The notes under the pieces are model-generated. The model was not told the DNA's origin. It searched no databases and worked only from the letters and a program-made list of their open reading frames with translations. This document shows positions 20,896 through 58,947 of a stretch of 64,000 nucleotides of DNA, piece after piece. The first letter of the stretch is position 1; each line of letters begins with the position of its first letter. This DNA comes from Gemmatimonadales bacterium (lineage in GTDB: Bacteria > Gemmatimonadota > Gemmatimonadetes > Gemmatimonadales > GWC2-71-9): the NCBI GenBank assembly GCA_965248285.1, contig CBDFJJ010000005.1, positions 121,447 to 185,446 on the forward strand, given 5' to 3'. The position numbers and the translations under genes are program-made.

Positions 20896-22034
20896 GTTGG
20901 AGAGTAATGACGTGGCAGCCGCGATCCGAGACCAACTAGGATTTCGTACGAAATCGTTCCCGCCCACCCCGCAAACTCGTCGAGCGTGATCTCACCTGCG
21001 CCGTCGGTACCAATCACCGTAACCACGTCTCCCACCGTGATGTCGTCCCCGACGCTGGGTCCCAGATGCACCATCGTCATGTCCATCGTGATGCGCCCCA
21101 CGACAGGAAACCGTCGCCCTCGAACCAGCAGGGCGGCTCGGCCTTGCGCGGCACGGGGGAGGCCGTCGGCGTAACCAATGCCGATCGTCGCCACGGTGCT
21201 CTCTTCGTCAGCCGCCCATTCGCCACCGTAGCTCACGGTCTCGCCGGCCCGTACTCGTCGAAGACTCACCACCCGCGCTCGAAGCGAAACCACCGGAGAG
21301 GGTGTCGGCAGCGCGTTGCCGATCTCCCCACCGAACAAGAAGATACCGGGCCGAACGAGATCGAATTTATCCTTCACCCGCCAGACGCCCGCACTGTTGC
21401 ACACATGCACCAGCTGCGGCTGTTCGGTAAATGCACTCAACGCATCCCGGAAGCGATCCAGCTGTAACAAGACTGTTGCGCCACTTTCATCGGCCGAGTG
21501 AAAATGGGTGAAGACCCCCTCCGGCGTGGACGCGACGACTGCCGCCAGCGTGGTGGTGTCATCCCATCGCACTCCGGCACGGGACATTCCCGTATCGATC
21601 TCGCAATGATACGGACGGCCTGGTGGCCATTGCCCAATGACACTGGGGTCGTCGAGAACCGGTCGGAGGTTGTGCTCGAGCATGGTGCCGAGCTGCACGG
21701 CGCTTGCGGGCGTAAACACGACCACCGGTCGCTCGACGCCGATCTCGCGCAGCTCGCGACCCTCATCCATCGTCGCCACGCCAAAGCCCCACGGATCGAG
21801 CGACTCGAGCGCACGCACGACCGCCTGGACGCCGAGTCCGTAGCCATTCGCCTTGACCATGGGAAGGAGGGCAGCGTTATGCGCCGTACGGCGCACGGCC
21901 TGGGCGTTTGCGACGAGGTTACCACGGTGACAACTCTTCGTTCCCTCGACGGCGTCGTCGACCCGGTGATCCCGAGCCCCACCGGCGGCGGGCTCTACGC
22001 CGAACGCTACATCCCGGTTGCCATGCGAGAGCAA
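20892..22034 (-). CDS. alr: alanine racemase (start uncertain)
   Basis: PMVKANGYGLG PLP-lysine motif and a conserved C-terminal domain. The track ORF (481 aa) is too long. Candidate starts are TTG 22034 and GTG 21899. Confidence 0.75.
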   Translation of the reverse strand: MLSHGNRDVAFGVEPAAGGARDHRVDDAVEGTKSCHRGNLVANAQAVRRTAHNAALLPMVKANGYGLGVQAVVRALESLDPWGFGVATMDEGRELREIGVERPVVVFTPASAVQLGTMLEHNLRPVLDDPSVIGQWPPGRPYHCEIDTGMSRAGVRWDDTTTLAAVVASTPEGVFTHFHSADESGATVLLQLDRFRDALSAFTEQPQLVHVCNSAGVWRVKDKFDLVRPGIFLFGGEIGNALPTPSPVVSLRARVVSLRRVRAGETVSYGGEWAADEESTVATIGIGYADGLPRAAQGRAALLVRGRRFPVVGRITMDMTMVHLGPSVGDDITVGDVVTVIGTDGAGEITLDEFAGWAGTISYEILVGLGSRLPRHYSPT

Positions 22035-24266
22035 TTCGCGCAACAGCGAGACATACTGTTCATCCCCCTGCCCGAGGGGCCGGAGCGACCGATCCTGCCG
22101 ACCTCCGGTCGCTCTTACTATTCGCACCGAGAACCGAGGTTCGCCGTAGCCGGTGACAACGAAACGATGTACGCCGGTAATCTCGGGCGCTTGTGGAAGA
22201 TCGACCTGCCCGGTGGCAGCCGCACCCCCCTTCCCTTCCGCGCCCGAGTGACGCTCGCGATCCGCGACCCCATCCCACCACCGAGGTGGAATCCGATCGA
22301 GCCCGGAACTGCGGCCCCGGTGAAAACGATCCAGCAACCCCGACTCTCCCCGGACGGGTCCCGTCTGGTGTTCCGCGCGGTGGGACGCCTCTGGCAGCAG
22401 CCACTCCCGAATGGAAAAGCGTCCCTTGTAGTCGACGATCCGAGGGGCGTATTTGACCCGGCGTTCTCACCAGACGGGCGCAAACTCGCCTACATCATCG
22501 GCAACCCGCGTCGGGAGCGGTACCCGGGGACGGCGGCGGGGAGGCACGAGATCCGGATCTTCGACTGGCAGACCGGGCAGACACGCACCTTGGTACCGCC
22601 GGATGAGTGTGGGTATGAAGATCTGACCTGGAGTCTCGACGGCAAGTTGATAGCGACGGGTTGCGATCGCCAGACGATCGCTATCGATCCGACCGAGGGG
22701 ACCGTCGGCCCGTTGGCGGATGCGCGCGCGGCGGAGGCCTACCCCCAGCTCGCAGCGGATGGTCAGACCCTCTACTTCGAGGGCGACGTCCCGAACACCC
22801 GGAACAGCCGGATCTACCGCTTGCGTCTCAGCGAGCCGAGCGAGCCGGAGCCGCTGCTGACGGTGGGGCGCGGGGAGATCTTTCGGATATCGCCTGATGC
22901 AGCGTGGGTGGCGCTGCCGGCTCACAACCGGCTAGGCATCAGGCTTGCGCCGCTTGGTGTGGGACGGGTCGACGAGGCAGATGTTCGGCTGTTCAGCACG
23001 GAAGGCGGCAGTGACTTCAGCTTCACCCCAGATGGATCTGCCTTGCTGTACGTTGCCGGCAACAGGTTGTGGCGCCAGCCGCTCGGGGGCGGGGAACGGG
23101 AAGAGATCCCCGTCCGACTCGAAGCGCGGGCTCCGACGCCCCCGCCGGTGCTGCTCCGGAATGCCCGGGTGTTGGACTTTGCCGCCGGCGGCTTTGGCTC
23201 GGAGACCTCGCTGTTGATCGACGGCGGGCGCATCCAGTGGATCGGCTCGGCACGGGGCCAACAGCTTCCGCCGGAGACAGTGACGCTGGATGCTCGAGGC
23301 CGGTTTGCCATTCCCGGACTTTTCGACATACACGGACACTTCGGGGGGTGCGGATGGGCCGAGTATGTTGCGGTCGGCGTCACGTCGGTGCGCAACATGG
23401 GGGGATGGCTCCCGGTTGCGAACGCACAGGCCGATCGAGGCGATTTCAGCAACGACCCCGTGACCCGCTGCTTTTACACGGGTGAGTTGTTCGAAGGTCT
23501 ACAGGGACGAAAGAGCGACGCGTTTATTCATCTGTACGACGAAGACGACGCCCGCGCCCATGTCCGTTTGTGGAAGGAGCTAGGCGCCCAATTCATCAAA
23601 CTCTATTGGGTGCTCCCGTGGCCGCTCCACCGAGCAGCCGCGGACGAGGCACGCCGTCTCGGACTCCCGGTGACCGCCCACGGCATCATTCTGGACGAAG
23701 CGGTCAAGGGAGTAACGCTGGGCTATACCGCGTTGACGCACTGGAGTCCCGTCTACGACGATGTGCTCCAGTTGTTCGCCGCGGCTGGGACGCGCTGGGA
23801 CCCCACCCTGGGAGTCGCCTCCGGCGGCGGCGAGTTGTTACGACGCGATGAGCCCGAACGGGCCGGGGGAGTCCAACCGGGCCCGTTCAGCGGTCTGGGA
23901 GACGACGCACTGCGAGGACGATGGGTGGCCGTTCTGCGGAGTATCCGTACGGCCTATCGCCGCGGCATCACGCTCCTGCCGGGGACCGACTACGGACCCA
24001 ATGCACCAGCTCTTCACTGGGAGTTGGAGTTCTTTGCCGAGGCGGGTATCCCACCGCTCGACGTGCTGCGGTTCGCCACTCAAGCCTCAGCGGCGACCGT
24101 GGGTGCGGGCGACGACCTCGGCACCCTGGAGGTCGGCAAGCTCGCCGACATAGTGTTGCTCGACGCGAATCCGCTAGAACGCATCCGCAACACACGATCT
24201 GTCTGGCGGGTGATCAAAGGCGGATGGGTGTTCGATCCAGAGGAGTTGCGGCCGCCCGGGAATTGA
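22023..24266 (+). CDS. amidohydrolase with N-terminal TolB/PD40-like beta-propeller repeats (start uncertain)
   Basis: Repeated LSPDGSRLVF / FSPDGRKLAY / FTPDGSALLY propeller motifs, then IPGLFDIHGHF...LPGTDYG...VGKLADIVLLDANPL amidohydrolase motifs. The first roughly 175 codons of the track ORF are antisense to alr and rejected. Confidence 0.7.
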   Translation: MREQFAQQRDILFIPLPEGPERPILPTSGRSYYSHREPRFAVAGDNETMYAGNLGRLWKIDLPGGSRTPLPFRARVTLAIRDPIPPPRWNPIEPGTAAPVKTIQQPRLSPDGSRLVFRAVGRLWQQPLPNGKASLVVDDPRGVFDPAFSPDGRKLAYIIGNPRRERYPGTAAGRHEIRIFDWQTGQTRTLVPPDECGYEDLTWSLDGKLIATGCDRQTIAIDPTEGTVGPLADARAAEAYPQLAADGQTLYFEGDVPNTRNSRIYRLRLSEPSEPEPLLTVGRGEIFRISPDAAWVALPAHNRLGIRLAPLGVGRVDEADVRLFSTEGGSDFSFTPDGSALLYVAGNRLWRQPLGGGEREEIPVRLEARAPTPPPVLLRNARVLDFAAGGFGSETSLLIDGGRIQWIGSARGQQLPPETVTLDARGRFAIPGLFDIHGHFGGCGWAEYVAVGVTSVRNMGGWLPVANAQADRGDFSNDPVTRCFYTGELFEGLQGRKSDAFIHLYDEDDARAHVRLWKELGAQFIKLYWVLPWPLHRAAADEARRLGLPVTAHGIILDEAVKGVTLGYTALTHWSPVYDDVLQLFAAAGTRWDPTLGVASGGGELLRRDEPERAGGVQPGPFSGLGDDALRGRWVAVLRSIRTAYRRGITLLPGTDYGPNAPALHWELEFFAEAGIPPLDVLRFATQASAATVGAGDDLGTLEVGKLADIVLLDANPLERIRNTRSVWRVIKGGWVFDPEELRPPGN

Positions 24267-24278
24267 AGACGAGGGATT

Positions 24279-24377
24279 CAGATTTCAGATTGCAGATTGC
24301 AGATTGCAGATCTCAGATTGCCCTTCCACCCCCCAGTGCACCGTAGTGCATCGCCCAATCTGCCATCTGAAATCTAG
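24279..24377. repeat. heptad dyad: (CAGATTG)x6 left arm, 35-nt loop, start of (CAATCTG)n right arm
   Basis: cagattt cagattg x3 cagatct cagattg (24279-24320), a loop, then caatctg ccatctg aaatcta (24356-24376). The array is cut by IS5-like copy 1 at CTAG. Confidence 0.9.
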
Positions 24378-25690
24378 CAGGTTGCGGAAAAATTGATGGT
24401 GAGCCGCGTTTGTCCGGGTAACACGACGGTGTACCAGCGTGCGGTCCCCTATTACCGCCCCCGCGGTGCGGTCGGCGTGACGAATGCGGCCCACACTGCC
24501 CCATCAGGGGCTGCCTCCGGCCAGGGTCAGGGTGCGTATCCGCATCAGATTGTAGACCGCGGCCGTGAACGTAAACACCCACCCGACCCGCGGGGTCCCG
24601 CGATGTCGGAGTTTGCGTAACAACCCAATCGTCTTGCCCCACCCGTAGATCTCTTCCACTTTTTTGCGCTGCCGTTGACTGATCGCATAGCTGGGATGGC
24701 GCGTCGTCCGGCCATCCACCGCGCTCCGCAACCGCGTGCGGTGCACGTTCGGCGTGACGTGGGGCGTCCAGCCCAACGCCCGCAGCGTGTCGACAAACCC
24801 GCACCGATCATAACCCTTGTCCGCCCCCAACGTCCGACGCCGGGCCGTCGGCGGTAAGCTCCCCACCATCGCCAGCGCACTCGCACACTCCGCCTCGTAG
24901 CCGGGCTGCGTCACGTCGGTCGCCACCACGAGCCCGTGCCGATTATCCATCAACACACTCGCCAAGTACGCCAATTGCGCGCCTTGCCCCCCACTCTTCC
25001 GCGTCAACCGCGCCTCCGGGTCCGTCCGCGACGCATGCGTCGCATTCGTCCGTTTCTCCTGGCGAAACGTCACGCTCGGATTCCCCGGATCATCGTCCGT
25101 TGGCGGGCGGGTGCCGGCCTTCGGCTGAAAACTCTTCTGACTCGCCCACGCGTCCAGCAAGGTCCCGTCGACGGTGAAATGCTCATTCGACAACAACGCC
25201 CGCCGCTCCGCCTCCTGTAACACTTCGGCCAGAAACGCATCCGCGATGCCCCCCTCGACCAGCCGCGTCCGATTCTTCGTAAAGACCGTCGGCACCCACA
25301 CCGCGTCGTCCAGATTCAACCCCACAAACCATCGGTACAGGATGTTGTAATCGAGCTGCTCCATCAGCTGCCGCTCGCTCCGGATCGTATACACCACCTG
25401 CAGCAATAACGCGCGTAACAAATGTTCCGGGGGAATCGACGGCCGGCCCCGCCGCGCGTACAGCCGGTCCAACTGCGGCGAGAGCCGGGCTAACACCGGG
25501 TCCACCAGCGCCCGCAGGGCGCGCAACGGATGGTCGGAGGGCACCCGATCCTCCGCACTGATATAGCTGAACAGCGCCGACTGATTCGTCTTGTTCCCGC
25601 GCATCGTGGCACTCCCATCGAGGTCCCTCTACGATAAGAACTTCCGGCTCGCGATGCTATCGTCCATTACCCGACTTTTTCCGCAACCTG
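24378..25690 (-). mobile_element. IS5-family insertion sequence, copy 1 (1313 bp)
   Basis: 15-bp perfect terminal inverted repeats CAGGTTGCGGAAAAA. CTAG on both flanks (24374-24377 and 25691-25694). Confidence 0.9.
24504..25604 (-). CDS. IS5-family DDE transposase
   Basis: 366 aa. N-terminal FSYISAEDRVPSDHPLR...GRPSIPPEHLLRALLLQVVYTIRSERQLMEQLDYNILYRWFVGL is typical of IS5-group transposases. Confidence 0.9.
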   Translation of the reverse strand: MRGNKTNQSALFSYISAEDRVPSDHPLRALRALVDPVLARLSPQLDRLYARRGRPSIPPEHLLRALLLQVVYTIRSERQLMEQLDYNILYRWFVGLNLDDAVWVPTVFTKNRTRLVEGGIADAFLAEVLQEAERRALLSNEHFTVDGTLLDAWASQKSFQPKAGTRPPTDDDPGNPSVTFRQEKRTNATHASRTDPEARLTRKSGGQGAQLAYLASVLMDNRHGLVVATDVTQPGYEAECASALAMVGSLPPTARRRTLGADKGYDRCGFVDTLRALGWTPHVTPNVHRTRLRSAVDGRTTRHPSYAISQRQRKKVEEIYGWGKTIGLLRKLRHRGTPRVGWVFTFTAAVYNLMRIRTLTLAGGSP

Positions 25691-25712
25691 CTAGAATCTG
25701 AAATCTGAAATT
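25691..25712. repeat. distal part of the CAATCTG heptad arm (after the IS)
   Basis: ctag aatctga aatctga aatt continues the heptad phase interrupted at 24377. Confidence 0.8.
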
Positions 25713-25732
25713 ATTCGTTCTCATCTTGTTGT

Positions 25733-26476
25733 TTGGGTCTTTCCCGTGTCAATTCAGATATGACCAGGGTCGGCGTGATGGCCGCGACTGCGTGCGTGGC
25801 ACTGTTAACTTCGAGTTTACCAGTCGCGAGTGCGCAATCCCCTGATCGGCGAGAGGAACGCGACCGCATGGTGCAAAACATCGTGCGGTATGGCGTGCGC
25901 GATTCCGCCACCCTCGACGCGATGGCGCGCGTTCCCCGACACGAGTTCGTTCCCCCGGAACACCGCGCGCAGGCCTACGAAGACCACCCGCTCCCCATCG
26001 GACTCGGCCAGACCATCTCGCAACCGTACATCGTGGCCTACATGACCGAGATGCTCGAGCTGCGGCCGGGCATCAAGGTGCTCGAGGTCGGCACCGGATC
26101 CGGCTACCAGGCCGCCGTGCTCGACGCGGTCGGGTGTGAGGTCTTCACCGTCGAGATCTACGAAGCGCTTGCGCGGAGCGCCCGCGACCGGTTGCAGCGG
26201 CTTGGGTTTACCCGCGTGACTACCCGCCATGCGGACGGACACTTCGGCTGGAGCGAGGAGGCACCGTTCGACGCCATCATCGTGACCGCAGCCGCGGGGT
26301 TCATTCCGCCGGCGCTGGTGGAGCAACTCCGGCCCGGCGGGCGGATGATGATCCCGGTGGGCAACCCGTTAGGCGTGCAGAACCTGATCCTGGTCACGAA
26401 AAACGAAGAGGGAGACGTCCGGACCCGGGCGGTCCTGCCGGTGCGTTTCGTCCCCATGGTGTCCGGCATCAGGTGA
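25733..26476 (+). CDS. pcm: protein-L-isoaspartate O-methyltransferase with N-terminal signal-like segment
   Basis: VPRHEFVP, GQTISQPYIVA and LEVGTGSGYQAAVL motifs. An alternative start at 25760 gives MTRVGVMAATACVALL... Confidence 0.85.
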   Translation: MGLSRVNSDMTRVGVMAATACVALLTSSLPVASAQSPDRREERDRMVQNIVRYGVRDSATLDAMARVPRHEFVPPEHRAQAYEDHPLPIGLGQTISQPYIVAYMTEMLELRPGIKVLEVGTGSGYQAAVLDAVGCEVFTVEIYEALARSARDRLQRLGFTRVTTRHADGHFGWSEEAPFDAIIVTAAAGFIPPALVEQLRPGGRMMIPVGNPLGVQNLILVTKNEEGDVRTRAVLPVRFVPMVSGIR

Positions 26477-28890
26477 TGGGGCGGCCCTCGCGCACCGTCC
26501 CTGTCGTCCTCATTTCCGCGGCCACTCTCTCGTTCGAGGTTCTCCTCGTCCGCGCGTTCTCCATCCAGTACTTCAACCACTTTGCCTTCATGGCGATCGG
26601 GGTCGCCATGCTGGGAACCGGGATGAGCGGTGTGGTGATGGCCCTTGTGAAGACGAAGTCGCCCCCCGTGCTGGACCGATGGTTCATTTCGGCCACCGCG
26701 TTGTTGGGATTCGTGCTGATGGGGAGCCTGGTCGCCGTGGACGCCGTCCGACTCGAGCCGACCCAGTTGCTGTGGGATCGGGCCCAATGGCTGCGGCTTC
26801 CGATTGTGTACACGCTGCTCGCGCTTCCCTTCGGACTCGGGGCCACGGTCGTCCTCCTCGCCCTGGTGCGGGAACCCAACCGGTCGGGCCGCATTTACGG
26901 AGCGAGCTTTCTGGGCGCTGCATTGGGAGGGGTGCTCGCTTTCGGTGTCTCGGTCATCGCGATGCCGGAACGTACGCTCGCTCTGCCGCCCCTCTTGGCG
27001 GTGGTTGCGGCCGGGTTCGCAGTTGCGACACCACGTGCCTCGCGCGCTCAGCGTTTCGTAACGGTTTTGACGGCCGTAACGGTGATGGCGGGTTGGGTAT
27101 GGCCACCGTGGCACCTCGACGTCTCGCCGCACAAGGCCTTGCCGCAGATCGAGGCGATGCCGGGCGCGGAGCGCATCCTCGACCGCCCTCACCCAGCCGG
27201 ATGGGTGAGCGCGGTGCGGTCGCCGTCGTTTCGGTACGCTCCGGGTTTGTCGCTCGGGTATCGCGGTGACATACCCAACCCGACCGCGCTGTTTGTGGAT
27301 GGAGAGTTGGCAGGTGTCGTACTCGACTCCTCGGACGTTCCGGAGCTGTACGACTGGCTTCCCTCTGCCGCGGCGTATGCAGTTGGTCGTGCGCCAAACG
27401 TGCTGGTGTTAGGTGCGGGTGGCGGGTCCGAGGTCCGGAGCGCGGTGCATCACGGTGCGGAACGGATCACGGCGGTGGAAGGTCGACCCGGCGTCATCAG
27501 TCTTCTCCGCGCGTTGCAGGATCCGAGCCTCCAGTCCAACGGGCCGTCGGTGACGTGGACCGGCAGTGACGCGCGGAGCTACGTCGCCCGGACGGGGGAG
27601 CGTTTCGATCTGATTACGGTGCAACTGTCGGGGAGCCCGGGTGGACAGGCGGGCGGTCTCCTCTCACTCAACGAGGATTTCCGCCACACGGTCGATGCGT
27701 ATCGGGAATACCTCGACCTTCTCGCGCCGGGTGGAGTGCTGACGGTCAGCAGTTGGTTGACTCTCCCGCCGAGGCGAAGTGTTCGGACGGTGATGACGGG
27801 CGGCGCGGCACTGCGCGACCGGGGCGGGGGCGGGGGCGGGGGCGGGGGCGGCGTCCCCGAACGGAGCGTGTTGATCGTAAGGAGTTGGGCCACGGTGACG
27901 CTGGTGTTGAAGCCCGACGGCCTGACGGAGCGAGACGTGGCCGCCGTTCGAGATTGGGCGGAGCGGCGGCAGTTCGATGTCGACTGGTACCCCGGGATAA
28001 CGACACCGGCATCGGAGTTTCACTTTCTCGATGATGCCGTGTTATACAGCGCGGCTCGGGCCGTGGCGGACGGCGAAGCGGCGGCTCGAGCGTTCGCCGA
28101 TGCATATCCCTTCGACGTTACTCCTGTCACGGATGCGAGACCGTTTCCCGATCACTTTCTCCGGCCCGCCCGTCTCTGGACCGTGCTTCAGGCCGGCCCC
28201 GGCGGAGTCCTCCCCATCGCTGAGCTCGGCCTGGTGGCCGTGATCGCGACGTTGGCCCAGGGTATGATGCTTGGCGCGATCCTATTACTCGTCCCGGCGT
28301 GGGTGGCGTCGGCACGCCGGGGACGCGGTCTCTCCCTGCCGCTCACCCTGTACTTCGTGGCGATCGGACTCGGGTACATGCTGGTGGAAATCGCCGCCAT
28401 TCAACAGTTGACCCTGCTGCTCGGTCAGCCGGTCTACGCGGTTACGGCCGTCCTGGTCACGGTACTCGTCTGCTCGGGCGCGGGCAGTATCTGGTCGGAC
28501 CGGTTCGAGACGAGGCGGCTTCGGTGGGTGACGTTCGCCGTGGCCGCGACATGCGTGGTGTACAGCGCGATGCTGCTGCCGTTGGTGCACGTCACGCAAT
28601 CGCTCGGATTGGCGATCCGGGCGGCCCTCGCCCTCGCCGCGATCGCGCCGGCTGCCGTGCTCATGGGGATGCCGTTTCCCGTTGGCCTGCGGCGGCTGGC
28701 TGGTGATCATCCGGTCGACCGCGCGTGGGCCTGGGCCGCCAATGGGTTCGCCTCGGTCGTGGCCACGCCGCTGGCGATGCTGGTGGCGTTAGAGTTGGGT
28801 TCGAGAGCGCTGCTCCTGCTCGGCGCCGCCGCCTACGGCGTTGCTTCGCTGAAATTCGGGCCACGGATTGCACGGAAGAAAACAGAATAA
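26473..28890 (+). CDS. polytopic membrane protein fused to a spermidine-synthase-like methyltransferase-fold domain
   Basis: 805 aa with N- and C-terminal multi-TM regions. The central VLVLGAGGGSEVRSAV...ITAVEGRP...FDLITVQL resembles the aminopropyltransferase fold. Confidence 0.65.
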   Translation: MMGRPSRTVPVVLISAATLSFEVLLVRAFSIQYFNHFAFMAIGVAMLGTGMSGVVMALVKTKSPPVLDRWFISATALLGFVLMGSLVAVDAVRLEPTQLLWDRAQWLRLPIVYTLLALPFGLGATVVLLALVREPNRSGRIYGASFLGAALGGVLAFGVSVIAMPERTLALPPLLAVVAAGFAVATPRASRAQRFVTVLTAVTVMAGWVWPPWHLDVSPHKALPQIEAMPGAERILDRPHPAGWVSAVRSPSFRYAPGLSLGYRGDIPNPTALFVDGELAGVVLDSSDVPELYDWLPSAAAYAVGRAPNVLVLGAGGGSEVRSAVHHGAERITAVEGRPGVISLLRALQDPSLQSNGPSVTWTGSDARSYVARTGERFDLITVQLSGSPGGQAGGLLSLNEDFRHTVDAYREYLDLLAPGGVLTVSSWLTLPPRRSVRTVMTGGAALRDRGGGGGGGGGGVPERSVLIVRSWATVTLVLKPDGLTERDVAAVRDWAERRQFDVDWYPGITTPASEFHFLDDAVLYSAARAVADGEAAARAFADAYPFDVTPVTDARPFPDHFLRPARLWTVLQAGPGGVLPIAELGLVAVIATLAQGMMLGAILLLVPAWVASARRGRGLSLPLTLYFVAIGLGYMLVEIAAIQQLTLLLGQPVYAVTAVLVTVLVCSGAGSIWSDRFETRRLRWVTFAVAATCVVYSAMLLPLVHVTQSLGLAIRAALALAAIAPAAVLMGMPFPVGLRRLAGDHPVDRAWAWAANGFASVVATPLAMLVALELGSRALLLLGAAAYGVASLKFGPRIARKKTE
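27821..27851 (+). repeat. (GGGGC)n pentanucleotide tract inside the coding sequence (G-quadruplex-type motif)
   Basis: G4 C G5 C G5 C G5 C G5 C GG on the coding strand. Encodes RDRGGGGGGGGGVPER. Confidence 0.9.
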
Positions 28891-41746: not shown

Positions 41747-43456
41747 GTGTGGCGCTGGAGAACCTCACTGGTCCCGCGGAGGTCAGTGACCGATTTCGCG
41801 AGCACGCCCAGGCGATCTTTGCCCCGCCGGAGGATCTAACCGGGAGCGAGTGGGCCGATAAGTACCGCGTGATCAGCCCCGGCAACCCGGAGCCCGGTCC
41901 CTGGCGCACCGATCGCGCGCCCTACCTGCGCGAGATCATGAACGTCTGTACCGACCAAAGCGTCGGCGACAAACGTGTGGTGTTCATGAAGTCCGCCCGG
42001 GTGGGTGGGACCCAGGCCGGATGTAATGTGATCGGGTTCTATACCCATGAAGTCCCGTCCCAGATGCTCGTGGTCCAGCCTACCAAGGAAGACGCCGAAG
42101 GATTTTCGAAAGAACAGTTGAAGCCCATGATCGACGACACGCCCGTCCTCCGGGAGACCTATTACCCTGAAACGGGCCGGCGAGATTCCCGCAACACCAT
42201 CCTCAAGAAGTCGTTCCCCGGGGGATTCTTGGTCATGGTGGGATCGAACAGCGCCTCGGGTTTTCGACGGCGCGACATTCAACGGGTGTTCTTGGAAGAG
42301 GTCGACGGTTACGGGCGGGTGGCGCGCGGGAGTTCGACCAATGCGGAAGGTGACCCGGTCACCCTGGCCGTCAAACGCACCCAGAACTACGACGACCGGC
42401 TGATCTACGAGAACTCCACCCCGACCATCAAGGGGCAGTCGCGCATCGAGCACGACTTCACCCTCTCCGATCAGCGTCGGTATTTCGTCCCCTGCCCCTT
42501 CTGCGGCCACATGCAGGTGTTGCACTGGCGCAACCTGCGCTGGGTGGACAATGACCCGGCGACGGTGCAGTACACCTGCGGGGAGATTTCCAACGAGGGC
42601 GAACTCGAGGCAGGATGCGGGAAACCGATCGAGGAACACCAGAAGCAATGGATGCTCCGCCGTGGGGAGTGGCGGGCCTCCCATGCGGGCCGGCGGATTA
42701 TCGGCTTTCACCTCTGGGCGGCGTATTCACCCTTTACCACGTGGGAACGCTTGGTCGAGGAGTGGCTCAACGCCCAGGGCAACAACGAACTCCTGCAAGT
42801 GTTCGTCAACACCGTGCTCGGGGAGACATGGGAGGGGCCCGCCGGCGAACAAATCGACCACACGGGACTCCTGGCACGGCGCGAGCGGTATCTCGCCGAC
42901 GTGCCGGCCGGCGTGGGGTTACTGACCGCAGGAACGGACGTGCAGGGCGATCGCCTCGAGGTCAGTGTGTGGGGATGGGGAAAGGGAGAGGAGCAGTGGC
43001 TGATTGACCACCAAGTGCTTTTTGGCGACCCACACCACGACGAGGTGTGGCGGCAGTTGGACGTGGTGCTCGATCGTCCGTGGAAGCACGCCTCCGGAGC
43101 CGACCTCCATCTCCGCGCCATGGGTGTCGACGCGGGGGGGCATCATACCCTTGAGGTCCATCAATACTGTGCGGCTCGCTTTTCCCGGGGGGTGATGGCC
43201 ATGCGAGGGGCCAACGTCCCGGGCGCGGCCGCGCTCCAGACACCGAGCACGAAAAGCAAAGCGAAAGGGAAGCTGTGGACGACGGGCACGGAGGCGCTCA
43301 AGGACCTACTATACGCCCGGCTGAAACTCACGACGTCCGCTCCGGGGTACGTCCATTTCCCGGTGCACATCGAGGACGAGTACTTCCGCCAGCTCACGGC
43401 CGAGAAGGCGGTTACCCGGTATGTGCGGAGCCGGCCGGTGCGGCAGTACCAATTAA
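41743..43456 (+). pseudogene. terL: terminase large subunit, GpA family, 3'-truncated by IS5-like copy 2
   Basis: GpA-type features include YFVPCPFCGHMQVLHWRNLRW and YFRQLTAEKAVTRYVRSRPVRQY. The reading frame runs into the IS inverted repeat at 43457. The last 20 codons of the track ORF are IS-encoded. Confidence 0.8.
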
Positions 43457-44769
43457 CAGGTTGCGGAAAAAGTCGGGTAATGGACGATAGCATCGCGAGC
43501 CGGAAGTTCTTATCGTAGAGGGACCTCGATGGGAGTGCCACGATGCGCGGGAACAAGACGAATCAGTCGGCGCTGTTCAGCTATATCAGTGCGGAGGATC
43601 GGGTGCCCTCCGACCATCCGTTGCGCGCCCTGCGGGCGCTGGTGGACCCGGTGTTAGCCCGGCTCTCGCCGCAGTTGGACCGGCTGTACGCGCGGCGGGG
43701 CCGGCCGTCGATTCCCCCGGAACATTTGTTACGCGCGTTATTGCTGCAGGTGGTGTATACGATCCGGAGCGAGCGGCAGCTGATGGAGCAGCTCGATTAC
43801 AACATCCTGTACCGATGGTTTGTGGGGTTGAATCTGGACGACGCGGTGTGGGTGCCGACGGTCTTTACGAAGAATCGGACGCGGCTGGTCGAGGGGGGCA
43901 TCGCGGATGCGTTTCTGGCCGAAGTGTTACAGGAGGCGGAGCGGCGGGCGTTGTTGTCGAATGAGCATTTCACCGTCGACGGGACCTTGCTGGACGCGTG
44001 GGCGAGTCAGAAGAGTTTTCAGCCGAAGGCCGGCACCCGCCCGCCAACGGACGATGATCCGGGGAATCCGAGCGTGACGTTTCGCCAGGAGAAACGGACG
44101 AATGCGACGCATGCGTCGCGGACGGACCCGGAGGCGCGGTTGACGCGGAAGAGTGGGGGGCAAGGCGCGCAATTGGCGTACTTGGCGAGTGTGTTGATGG
44201 ATAATCGGCACGGGCTCGTGGTGGCGACCGACGTGACGCAGCCCGGCTACGAGGCGGAGTGTGCGAGTGCGCTGGCGATGGTGGGGAGCTTACCGCCGAC
44301 GGCCCGGCGTCGGACGTTGGGGGCGGACAAGGGTTATGATCGGTGCGGGTTTGTCGACACGCTGCGGGCGTTGGGCTGGACGCCCCACGTCACGCCGAAC
44401 GTGCACCGCACGCGGTTGCGGAGCGCGGTGGATGGCCGGACGACGCGCCATCCCAGCTATGCGATCAGTCAACGGCAGCGCAAAAAAGTGGAAGAGATCT
44501 ACGGGTGGGGCAAGACGATTGGGTTGTTACGCAAACTCCGACATCGCGGGACCCCGCGGGTCGGGTGGGTGTTTACGTTTACGGCCGCGGTCTACAATCT
44601 GATGCGGATACGCACCCTGACCCTGGCCGGAGGCAGCCCCTGATGGGGCAGTGTGGGCCGCATTCGTCACGCCGACCGCACCGCGGGGGCGGTAATAGGG
44701 GACCGCACGCTGGTACACCGTCGTGTTACCCGGACAAACGCGGCCCACCATGAATTTTTCCGCAACCTG
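43457..44769 (+). mobile_element. IS5-family insertion sequence, copy 2 (1313 bp)
   Basis: Same inverted repeats as copy 1. The flanks differ: TTAA (43453-43456) versus CTAG (44770-44773). Confidence 0.9.
43543..44643 (+). CDS. IS5-family DDE transposase
   Basis: The 366-aa sequence matches copy 1 as given in the ORF track. Confidence 0.9.
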   Translation: MRGNKTNQSALFSYISAEDRVPSDHPLRALRALVDPVLARLSPQLDRLYARRGRPSIPPEHLLRALLLQVVYTIRSERQLMEQLDYNILYRWFVGLNLDDAVWVPTVFTKNRTRLVEGGIADAFLAEVLQEAERRALLSNEHFTVDGTLLDAWASQKSFQPKAGTRPPTDDDPGNPSVTFRQEKRTNATHASRTDPEARLTRKSGGQGAQLAYLASVLMDNRHGLVVATDVTQPGYEAECASALAMVGSLPPTARRRTLGADKGYDRCGFVDTLRALGWTPHVTPNVHRTRLRSAVDGRTTRHPSYAISQRQRKKVEEIYGWGKTIGLLRKLRHRGTPRVGWVFTFTAAVYNLMRIRTLTLAGGSP

Positions 44770-44799
44770 CTAGGTGGTGCTCTGCAAGGAAGGTGTGTG

Positions 44800-57634: not shown

Positions 57635-58947
57635 CAGGTTGCGGAAAAATTCATGGTGAGCCGCGTTTGTCCGGGTAACACGACGGTGTACCAGCGTGCG
57701 GTCCCCTATTACCGCCCCCGCGGTGCGGTCGGCGTGACGAATGCGGCCCACACTGCCCCATCAGGGGCTGCCTTCGGCCAGGGTCAGGGTGCGTATCCGC
57801 ATCAGATTGTAGACCGCGGCCGTGAACGTAAACACCCACCCGACCCGCGGGGTCCCGCGATGTCGGAGTTTGCGTAACAACCCAATCGTCTTGCCCCACC
57901 CGTAGATCTCTTCCACTTTTTTGCGCTGCCGTTGACTGATCGCATAGCTGGGATGGCGCGTCGTCCGGCCATCCACCGCGCTCCGCAACCGCGTGCGGTG
58001 CACGTTCGGCGTGACGTGGGGCGTCCAGCCCAACGCCCGCAGCGTGTCGACAAACCCGCACCGATCATAACCCTTGTCCGCCCCCAACGTCCGACGCCGG
58101 GCCGTCGGCGGTAAGCTCCCCACCATCGCCAGCGCACTCGCACACTCCGCCTCGTAGCCGGGCTGCGTCACGTCGGTCGCCACCACGAGCCCGTGCCGAT
58201 TATCCATCAACACACTCGCCAAGTACGCCAATTGCGCGCCTTGCCCCCCACTCTTCCGCGTCAACCGCGCCTCCGGGTCCGTCCGCGACGCATGCGTCGC
58301 ATTCGTCCGTTTCTCCTGGCGAAACGTCACGCTCGGATTCCCCGGATCATCGTCCGTTGGCGGGCGGGTGCCGGCCTTCGGCTGAAAACTCTTCTGACTC
58401 GCCCACGCGTCCAGCAAGGTCCCGTCGACGGTGAAATGCTCATTCGACAACAACGCCCGCCGCTCCGCCTCCTGTAACACTTCGGCCAGAAACGCATCCG
58501 CGATGCCCCCCTCGACCAGCCGCGTCCGATTCTTCGTAAAGACCGTCGGCACCCACACCGCGTCGTCCAGATTCAACCCCACAAACCATCGGTACAGGAT
58601 GTTGTAATCGAGCTGCTCCATCAGCTGCCGCTCGCTCCGGATCGTATACACCACCTGCAGCAATAACGCGCGTAACAAATGTTCCGGGGGAATCGACGGC
58701 CGGCCCCGCCGCGCGTACAGCCGGTCCAACTGCGGCGAGAGCCGGGCTAACACCGGGTCCACCAGCGCCCGCAGGGCGCGCAACGGATGGTCGGAGGGCA
58801 CCCGATCCTCCGCACTGATATAGCTGAACAGCGCCGACTGATTCGTCTTGTTCCCGCGCATCGTGGCACTCCCATCGAGGTCCCTCTACGATAAGAACTT
58901 CCGGCTCGCGATGCTATCGTCCATTACCCGACTTTTTCCGCAACCTG
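57635..58947 (-). mobile_element. IS5-family insertion sequence, copy 3 (1313 bp)
   Basis: Same inverted repeats as the other copies. CTAG on both flanks (57631-57634 and 58948-58951). Confidence 0.9.
57761..58861 (-). CDS. IS5-family DDE transposase
   Basis: 366 aa. Differs from copies 1 and 2 in the track translation only at ...LTLAEGSP versus ...LTLAGGSP. Confidence 0.9.
   Translation of the reverse strand: MRGNKTNQSALFSYISAEDRVPSDHPLRALRALVDPVLARLSPQLDRLYARRGRPSIPPEHLLRALLLQVVYTIRSERQLMEQLDYNILYRWFVGLNLDDAVWVPTVFTKNRTRLVEGGIADAFLAEVLQEAERRALLSNEHFTVDGTLLDAWASQKSFQPKAGTRPPTDDDPGNPSVTFRQEKRTNATHASRTDPEARLTRKSGGQGAQLAYLASVLMDNRHGLVVATDVTQPGYEAECASALAMVGSLPPTARRRTLGADKGYDRCGFVDTLRALGWTPHVTPNVHRTRLRSAVDGRTTRHPSYAISQRQRKKVEEIYGWGKTIGLLRKLRHRGTPRVGWVFTFTAAVYNLMRIRTLTLAEGSP

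Follow-up and report, generated by a model that had tools for sequence, protein, structure and literature searches.

Between an amidohydrolase gene and a gene for protein-L-isoaspartate O-methyltransferase (PCMT), a Gemmatimonadales bacterium carries a run of CAGATTG-type heptads, a short spacer and a run of CAATCTG-type heptads, the reverse complement, and the second run is interrupted by an insertion sequence (IS) of the IS5 family. The locus lies in the 64,000-nucleotide stretch analysed here (the window; GenBank assembly GCA_965248285.1, contig CBDFJJ010000005.1, positions 121,447 to 185,446), and it raises the question of whether the separated repeats were once a single element and, if so, what such an element does. 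Heptamer repeats are among the commonest unexplained repeats of bacteria. We show that before the insertion, positions 24268-24377 and 25695-25720 were joined in a single uninterrupted palindrome of about 135 bp, a structural account in which we have high confidence. We also favour, as the probable whole, a reading in which this element is an IS-split member of a gene-end dyad class that acts as a hairpin at the 3' end of transcripts, in the manner of repetitive extragenic palindromic (REP) elements. Our confidence in the functional account is moderate to low, and its basis is mainly position.

The split element and its pre-insertion state

Before the insertion the element consisted of purine-leaning CAGATTG heptads, a 35-nt core, complementary CAATCTG heptads and short complementary termini that closed its ends. 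All of its parts are read on the plus strand. The left terminus, GACGAGGGATT (24268-24278), forms the outer stem of the predicted fold by pairing with the right terminus, ATTATTCGTTC. It is followed by the left (5') arm (24279-24320), six in-phase heptads in the order CAGATTT, CAGATTG three times, CAGATCT and CAGATTG, which Tandem Repeats Finder (TRF) reports as a period-7 array at 24275-24321 with 6.9 copies and 85% matches. The 35-nt core or spacer (24321-24355), whose conservation is seen in an alignment of family copies (alignment A1), is made up of CCCTTCCACCCCCC, then a small hairpin, GTGCAC-CGTA-GTGCAT, then CGCC. The proximal part of the right (3') arm (24356-24377) reads CAATCTG (24356-24362), CCATCTG (24363-24369) and AAATCTA (24370-24376) with a G at 24377, and its last 4 nt (24374-24377) are the left copy of a CTAG duplication. 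The IS follows, and then the right CTAG target-site copy (25691-25694). What remains of the right arm, together with the right terminus ATTCGTTC, occupies 25695-25720, where the heptads AATCTGA AATCTGA (25695-25708) and then AATT keep the phase; TRF scores 25695-25711 as period 7 with 100% matches. An initial annotation had described this locus as a second heptad dyad, with a heptamer differing from the AATATCC of other elements and split by an IS5-family insertion at a CTAG. This is what the sequence holds, and its coordinates for the heptads, the 35-nt loop and the IS site agree with ours base for base.

Deleting the IS and one CTAG in silico gave ...AAATCTA GAATCTG AAATCTG AAATT, in phase, with six units in the left arm and five or six in the right. 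The empty-site rebuild and fold that had been suggested as a check returned a single long hairpin of -50.6 kcal/mol for the 137-nt site, compared with -27.8 +/- 3.4 kcal/mol for 200 dinucleotide shuffles, none of which folded as well (z -6.77). The present-day, IS-split sequence of equal length has no such fold (z -1.2). The in-phase right arm and the fold score thus bear out the proposal that removing the IS restores a long dyad. The reconstruction is further supported because uninterrupted family homologues are contiguous across the junction (...CTGAAATCTAGAATCTGAAATC...): one in the same genome (G000 C12:130082-130198, 84% identity) and others in the congener G007 (C78:3055-3160, 86% identity, and C88).

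The orthologous locus itself was not found among related genomes. Adjacency of the amidohydrolase and PCMT genes occurs in none of the relatives retrieved by DNA and protein searches of 30 relatives and named genome contigs; homologues of both flanking genes are present among them. None of the 80 PCMT loci retrieved has an amidohydrolase gene upstream, and a second orthologue query, with C11:453350, gave no match. In same-genus genomes, what comes after the amidohydrolase homologue is a plain hairpin in G003 and tRNA genes in G001, G002 and G006.

The gene upstream of the element (21630-24266, plus strand) encodes a PD40 beta-propeller/amidohydrolase protein, as assigned from the Pfam domains PD40, Amidohydro_1 and Amidohydro_3, the open reading frame (ORF) list and our own gene call. 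Its TGA stop is at 24264-24266, and the element begins 8-12 nt 3' of it. Downstream, the PCMT gene (25733-26476, plus strand; Pfam PF01135, E = 1.5e-62) has an ambiguous start, at 25733, 25761 or 25868, and its best relatives are in Gemmatimonadota/Gemmatimonadales metagenome-assembled genomes (MAGs). A scan of present-day positions 23500-26500 against Rfam gave no match at E <= 1.

A class of purine-first dyads at gene ends

The host genome (G000) is an uncultured Gemmatimonadota/Gemmatimonadales MAG of 6.45 Mb in 13 contigs, with 61% GC; its best PCMT relatives place it in this taxon. TRF found 1210 period-7 arrays across it, the corresponding counts for periods 6 and 10 being 261 and 307, and by consensus the period-7 arrays represent 185 canonical heptamers. 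An inverted partner lies within 130 nt of 49% of the period-7 arrays versus 7.7% in a composition-matched control, for which we used the complement without reversal. The genome-wide catalogue of heptamers that the initial annotation had called for yielded 232 strict dyads. They represent at least 35 heptamer families; the spacer has a median length of 36 nt and an arm about 4.4 units, and the median dyad element, at 97 nt, has a folding energy of -65 kcal/mol. The lengths of the two arms show no correlation (rho = -0.07), and matched arm lengths were therefore discarded as a mark of templated or selected pairing. CAGATTG has no G-run; only some other families, such as AGGAGGG and CGGGGGT, have one.

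The spacers share a composition. They are usually C-rich in their first half (150 versus 32) and G-rich in their second (137 versus 36), and 97 of the 185 spacers, from 15 families, contain CCACCC/GGGTGG, a 12-fold excess over expectation. Stand-alone CCACCC...GGGTGG hairpins were considered as a general terminator and set aside: matches to the loose pattern are chiefly noise within genes, and those in intergenic DNA mostly carry arrays already. The CGGGGGT/CGGGAGT heptad family encloses a conserved core of 51-52 nt (TCTAGCATTGCAGGTCATGGTTCTCATGGGAGTACTCGGCCGGGACGCGCAG) in both orientations, which looks like a distinct embedded element (examples at C11:251286-251407, C11:274657-274779 and C7:191898-191999).

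Nearly all dyads lie outside genes (216 of 232), with 118 in tandem, 77 in convergent and 21 in divergent contexts and 15 classed as genic. The genome has 1937 tandem, 583 convergent and 755 divergent gaps of at least 60 nt, and a dyad is found in 13% of the convergent gaps versus 2.8% of the divergent ones. Measured as medians, the upstream stop is 3 nt away from a dyad and the next start 51 nt; the stop is the nearer of the two for 97 dyads and the start for 29 (p = 9e-10), and 124 of 246 incoming genes end within or touching the array. The purine-rich arm often has the stop codon within its opening units (TGA in GTGAGAC, TAG in TAGGGTG; C13:1795900, C11:744314, C11:841270), and between convergent genes one dyad can supply both stops.

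The dyads also follow a strand rule. Their 5' arm has more G than C in 208 of 230 cases and is purine-rich in 209 of 227, which by symmetry is true on both strands. Where arrays lie just past a stop, the sense strand is purine-rich in 352 of 393, and where they lie just before a start it is pyrimidine-rich in 92 of 122. The window element conforms, with heptads that start 12 nt past the TGA and a CAGATTG sense strand that has more G than C and 4 purines in 7.

These regularities bear on an explanation that gives the dyads no function. They would be by-products of polymerase slippage and of palindrome-generating events, persisting where they do little harm, at gene 3' ends, and their polarity would reflect a transcription-coupled mutational bias or the filtering out of arrays that fail to stop translation, rather than a role in RNA. 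Slippage has indeed been proposed for the heptamer excess (Mrazek et al. 2007, as relayed in PMC4679880), yet slippage alone makes no inverted partner, and partners are found at 49% against 7.7% in the control. The positional precision, with its median of 3 nt from the stop and its preference for convergent over divergent gaps, is extreme for tolerated debris. The 90% strand rule is likewise difficult for this explanation, as are a polarity fixed over at least 35 heptamer families and two taxonomic families, the recurrent C-then-G core and the placement of dyads where relatives have plain hairpins. On the other side, about half of the arrays are solo, arm lengths are uncorrelated and the sense strand has no excess of G.U-type mismatches. 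A same-genus genome (G003) has few and short arrays in 400 kb yet possesses ordinary hairpins, and the IS has destroyed 27 family clusters, this copy among them, without any trace of counter-selection. We regard a functionless origin as possible and give it real, though clearly minor, weight.

The initial annotation had named the 7-nt periodicity as the property shared between elements of different sequence. That part does not stand, since dyads of period 8 (37, of which 35 are purine-first) and period 9 (82, of which 79 are purine-first) in G000 follow the same polarity rule; GACGGAAG and GGGCGGTA are examples of octad and nonamer dyads. Dyads of period 6 or 10 were not found in G000. A shared design does hold, although it is broader than 7 nt and comes with extra rules: a purine- or G-rich arm first, abutment to a stop, and a core that is C-rich and then G-rich. 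The accompanying view that this design, rather than a specific sequence, is what matters stands in so far as the design spans at least 35 heptamer families, but the window copy is also a member of a sequence family in which core, heptad order and ends are conserved. Nor is its architecture the same as that of the AATATCC elements, which mostly have spacers of 4-28 nt and no conserved core. One architecture built from dozens of unrelated units in three periods sets what is constrained (position, polarity and pairing) apart from what is free (the sequence and number of units).

The polarity extends beyond this genome. G019 belongs to a different family of the order, and 400 kb sampled from it contained 16 dyads built from other units (8 heptad, 8 octad), every one of them purine-first. 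A 400-kb sample of the same-genus G003 held few arrays, all of them short. In G001 (C176, about 1060-1330), octad dyads separate tRNA genes.

A proposed 3'-end hairpin and its relation to known repeats

Given where the dyads lie, we propose that a transcribed dyad would form a very stable RNA hairpin at the 3' end, similar to REP elements and bacterial interspersed mosaic elements (BIMEs). Such a hairpin might stabilise the 3' end of the mRNA, stop transcription without a U-tract, or both, and between convergent genes it would work from both directions. It would occupy the slot that in relatives is held by plain GC-rich stem-loops: the G003 amidohydrolase homologue has a plain GC hairpin past its stop, and downstream of an S9-peptidase-like gene, the position of a heptad dyad in G000, plain GC hairpins are seen in G006 and G008. 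The arms would change length by replication slippage, in whole units and each arm independently. Length differences between CAGATTG family copies are largely whole heptads (alignment A1), and we count these whole-unit gaps, together with the uncorrelated arm lengths, in favour of slippage; the lack of correlation is more readily reconciled with arms that slip independently than with selection for full pairing. At the locus in the window, the amidohydrolase transcript probably lost its 3' structure once the hairpin was split.

Several points weigh against this role. A distribution much like this one would also arise from repeats that gene 3' ends simply tolerate, and the unmatched arm lengths mean that full-length pairing is not maintained. 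Just 11% of dyads have a U-tract (4 or more T among the 8 nt that follow), and a scan for a terminator consensus at the locus found none, the tail reading AAATTATTCGTTCTC. Among 1x1 mismatches on the sense strand, G.T is seen 44 times versus 57 for A.C (p = 0.23), with no wobble signature of the RNA type, and roughly half of the arrays have no partner. The comparison with plain hairpins in relatives covers two loci only. Gene positions come from a home-made codon-usage caller (5329 genes, 86% coding) that is crude and unvalidated, and the MAG, in 13 contigs, is 93% complete with 3.9% contamination.

The strand-symmetric mismatch spectra would suit dyads that act as DNA, either as cruciforms or as sites bound by a nucleoid protein, a cold-shock-type single-strand binder of heptamers or replication and recombination factors, with any role in RNA incidental. 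The perfect two-fold symmetry of the design and the status of dyads as hot spots for at least two IS types (below) point the same way. CspB has been reported to bind heptamer direct repeats (as given in PMC4679880), and a heptamer-binding protein has been speculated upon for Nostoc (bioRxiv 10.1101/2022.06.06.494920). We nevertheless consider this explanation very improbable: the strand rule follows the direction of the neighbouring gene, adjacency to stops is hard to explain without transcription or translation, and the heptamers are too diverse for a single sequence-specific binder.

The 3'-end hairpin reading shares features with intrinsic terminators, in that a stable GC-containing stem-loop stands just past the stop and relatives have plain GC hairpins in the same slots. 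The dyads differ in having no 3' U-tract and far longer stems (median 97 nt, -65 kcal/mol). A canonical intrinsic terminator was accordingly rejected, the stem being present here without a U-tract.

The closest precedent is the set of G-rich heptamers described by Rehm et al. (2015, PLoS One; PMC4692102), GGGAATC in Xanthomonas and GGGGA(C/T)T in Nostoc. These are tandem, mostly with about 4 units per array, intergenic and rare between divergent genes. In Xanthomonas they overlap a stop or lie within 50 bp of one, the G-rich strand being sense there and the C-rich strand upstream of ORFs. Each genome has 70-75 pairs in 'convergent orientation' that are capable of forming stem-loops, repeat lengths and sequences differ among close species, and Xanthomonas transcripts tend to start or stop at the repeats (PMC4692102), a point in favour of the 3'-end reading. 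The window element resembles them in its tandem 7-nt units (at least 2), intergenic location within 50 bp of a stop, purine/G-rich sense strand and stem-loop pair, and the rules seen in Xanthomonas and Nostoc are thereby extended to a distant phylum. It differs in that CAGATTG lacks the tract of at least three G per unit that would allow a G-quadruplex. Those genomes have one dominant G-quadruplex-capable heptamer, whereas G000 has at least 35 families, many of them (CAGATTG and AATATCC included) without G-tracts. Unlike the Xanthomonas and Nostoc repeats, the dyads of G000 also come in periods 8 and 9, and many enclose a conserved or GC-rich core hairpin. What differs from the known heptamers is the many unit sequences, often incapable of forming a G-quadruplex, the periods of 8 and 9, the enclosed cores, the phylum and the interplay with an IS burst.

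Long simple sequence repeats (LSSR), with units of 5-11 nt, also have heptanucleotides as their most abundant type, intergenic and phylogenetically scattered (Mrazek et al. 2007, cited through the summaries in PMC4679880 and PMC4692102). As these summaries present them, they resemble our arrays in abundant intergenic heptamer units with a proposed slippage origin, and they are defined as direct arrays, a definition outside which inverted pairing, core, polarity and stop adjacency fall. REP elements, BIMEs and REP doublets forming hairpins (REPINs), known from Enterobacteria and Pseudomonas (e.g. PMC3116915), are likewise abundant extragenic imperfect palindromes at gene 3' ends and in convergent gaps, with inverted hairpin pairs. 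Many dispersed extragenic imperfect palindromes are present in G000 too, with 71 clusters of the CAGATTG family and a largely non-genic set of dyads, but REP units are single palindromes of about 20-40 nt, whereas here the units are tandem arrays with no sequence similarity to them.

A wider formulation would make the purine-first dyads of periods 7-9 a lineage-wide modular gene-end cassette of the Gemmatimonadales. Stop-containing units (GTGAGAC, TAGGGTG) of mostly non-triplet length (7 and 8, although 9 also occurs) would close three frames from either side, the hairpin would set or protect the transcript 3' end in place of a terminator, and the cassette would diversify by slippage into dozens of families, spread by some mechanism and serve as a landing pad for IS elements. 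We put this forward as a speculation that is rather doubtful in its entirety.

The CAGATTG family and its insertion sequences

Counted after in silico removal of IS copies, G000 has 71 clusters of AGATT-type heptads. About 14 family copies share the core CCCTTCCACCCC...GTGCGTCGCC, which is also kept in the congener, and in core-bearing copies the order of variant heptads is conserved (GATTTCA GAATGCA GATTGCA ... GATCTCA GATTG; alignment A1). Complementary termini ACGA.../...TCGT are present in several copies. The family occurs in G000, G002, G005 and G007 and weakly in G001, which amounts to four or five species of the genus; the other 26 relatives gave no family match at E <= 1e-5, and G003 has one isolated CAGATTG-type array. 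The CAGATTG family is thus dispersed and restricted to part of one Gemmatimonadales genus.

Some family members have moved as whole elements. The closest paralogue of the window copy, C9:10772, is 90% identical to it and shares its left-terminal sequence ACGAGGGATT and its right end (...ATTCGT), while the flanks are otherwise unrelated. This, the conserved order of variant heptads, the CGGGGGT family with its conserved 51-52 nt core in both orientations and the seven homologues of Y1 transposases (PF01797) in the genome would suit a non-autonomous mobile element, of the type of a miniature inverted-repeat transposable element (MITE), a REPIN or a palindrome-associated transposable element (PATE), with its transposase encoded elsewhere, the heptads as binding repeats and the gene-end location as target choice. 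We consider that unlikely. Neither the window copy nor the C9 copy has a target-site duplication at its ends, and dozens of heptamer families in three periods would demand many cognate enzymes. A heptad array lies within 700 nt of only 1 of the 7 Y1 genes, whereas for all genes the share with an array within 300 nt is 22%. We noticed no autonomous IS whose ends match, although no systematic search was made, and several copies lie in paralogous flanks upstream of Ser/Thr-kinase-like genes, where segmental duplication is possible. A MITE assignment was rejected on the missing flanking duplications despite the complementary termini ACGAGG.../...TTCGT, and a link of the kind that REPINs have to REP-associated tyrosine (Y1) transposases (RAYT) was rejected on the same count of period-7 arrays near PF01797 genes. 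A MITE or REPIN origin is therefore not supported, though whole-element dispersal did occur.

Several core-bearing copies stand about 75 nt upstream of paralogous genes whose products start MADTFDRLK...LADRYAIQEELG (G007:C78, G007:C88 and G000 C12:415500-424200), and which we take to be Ser/Thr kinase-like. The copies in these paralogous flanks suggest that part of the family spread through segmental duplication. A further repeat, GGGGAGTCCCGGGCTGAAGGGCC, adjoins the MADTFDRLK... genes. With respect to orientation, the gene on the 5' side reads into the element in 8 of 16 regular-expression hits to the core, a count confounded by adjoining IS transposase genes and by at least one hit that has no heptad element. 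CAGATTG arrays often abut arrays of other periods (TGCCCCTG octads, CCCCCGTGC nonamers) as composites without an inverted partner, as at C10:94603, C13:1860371 and C13:464102.

The insertion that splits the window copy (24378-25690, minus strand) is a 1313-bp IS5-family element, identified from a blastn census, NF033581 and Pfam. It has 15-bp terminal inverted repeats (CAGGTTGCGGAAAAA / TTTTTCCGCAACCTG) and a transposase ORF at 24504-25604 on the minus strand (366 aa), whose product scores 250 bits with the IS5-family model NCBIfam NF033581 (cut-off 140) and has the Pfam domains DUF772 (PF05598) and DDE_Tnp_1 (PF01609). A DDE transposase with an N-terminal DUF772, a length of about 1.3 kb, inverted repeats of about 15 bp and a 4-bp CTAG/YTAR duplication are all as in the IS5 family. 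What sets this element apart is an unusual burst, with 201 full-length copies that are 99.6-100% identical and make up about 4% of the genome. The IS has expanded very recently, and its insertion here destroyed the hairpin. Two other copies lie in the window, at about 43453-44773 and at 57635-58947 (C5:179081-180393).

REP elements are known targets of insertion sequences, and the target choice of this IS is traceable to the heptads. CTAG/CTAG flanks 158 of the 201 copies, most others having CTAA or TTAG variants, and the target logo extends to T-CTAG-A. In the IS-free genome, 94 of 265 TCTAGA sites (35%) are occupied, and occupancy is 59% within heptad arrays versus 31% elsewhere (odds ratio 3.25, p = 5e-4); the corresponding ratio for bare CTAG is 13.7. 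Adjacent AATCTAG/AATCTGA-type heptads spell TCTAGA, and 27 of the 71 CAGATTG-type clusters (38%) therefore hold an IS copy. The insertion in the window took place at this site because neighbouring right-arm heptads (AAATCTA|GAATCTG) form the TCTAGA target, and the paralogue C9:10772 has an IS copy at the identical TCTAGA. A short repeat family can thus steer a transposon burst. Targeting of this kind is unreported for the Xanthomonas and Nostoc repeats (PMC4692102). Several IS copies occur as tandem pairs about 12-20 nt apart within heptad arrays, for example C13:199800/201133 and C6:150009/151341.

A second mobile element, with ends GGGCCTCCCCGGTTTGGTGGACAC and GGTCTTCCCCCGGTTTGATGGACA and 15 copies of each end, was also seen (examples at C8:182864, C12:424129, C11:372861, C1:22265 and C12:1055360). 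It carries a 386-aa ORF, presumably an IS30-like transposase, and a 276-aa IS3 OrfB-like ORF. The automatic period-7 score flags just 10 of its 30 ends. By inspection, about two thirds of the 30 sit 0-30 nt past a CAGATTG-type array, often in the dyad core, and more than one IS therefore has a hot spot in this repeat family.

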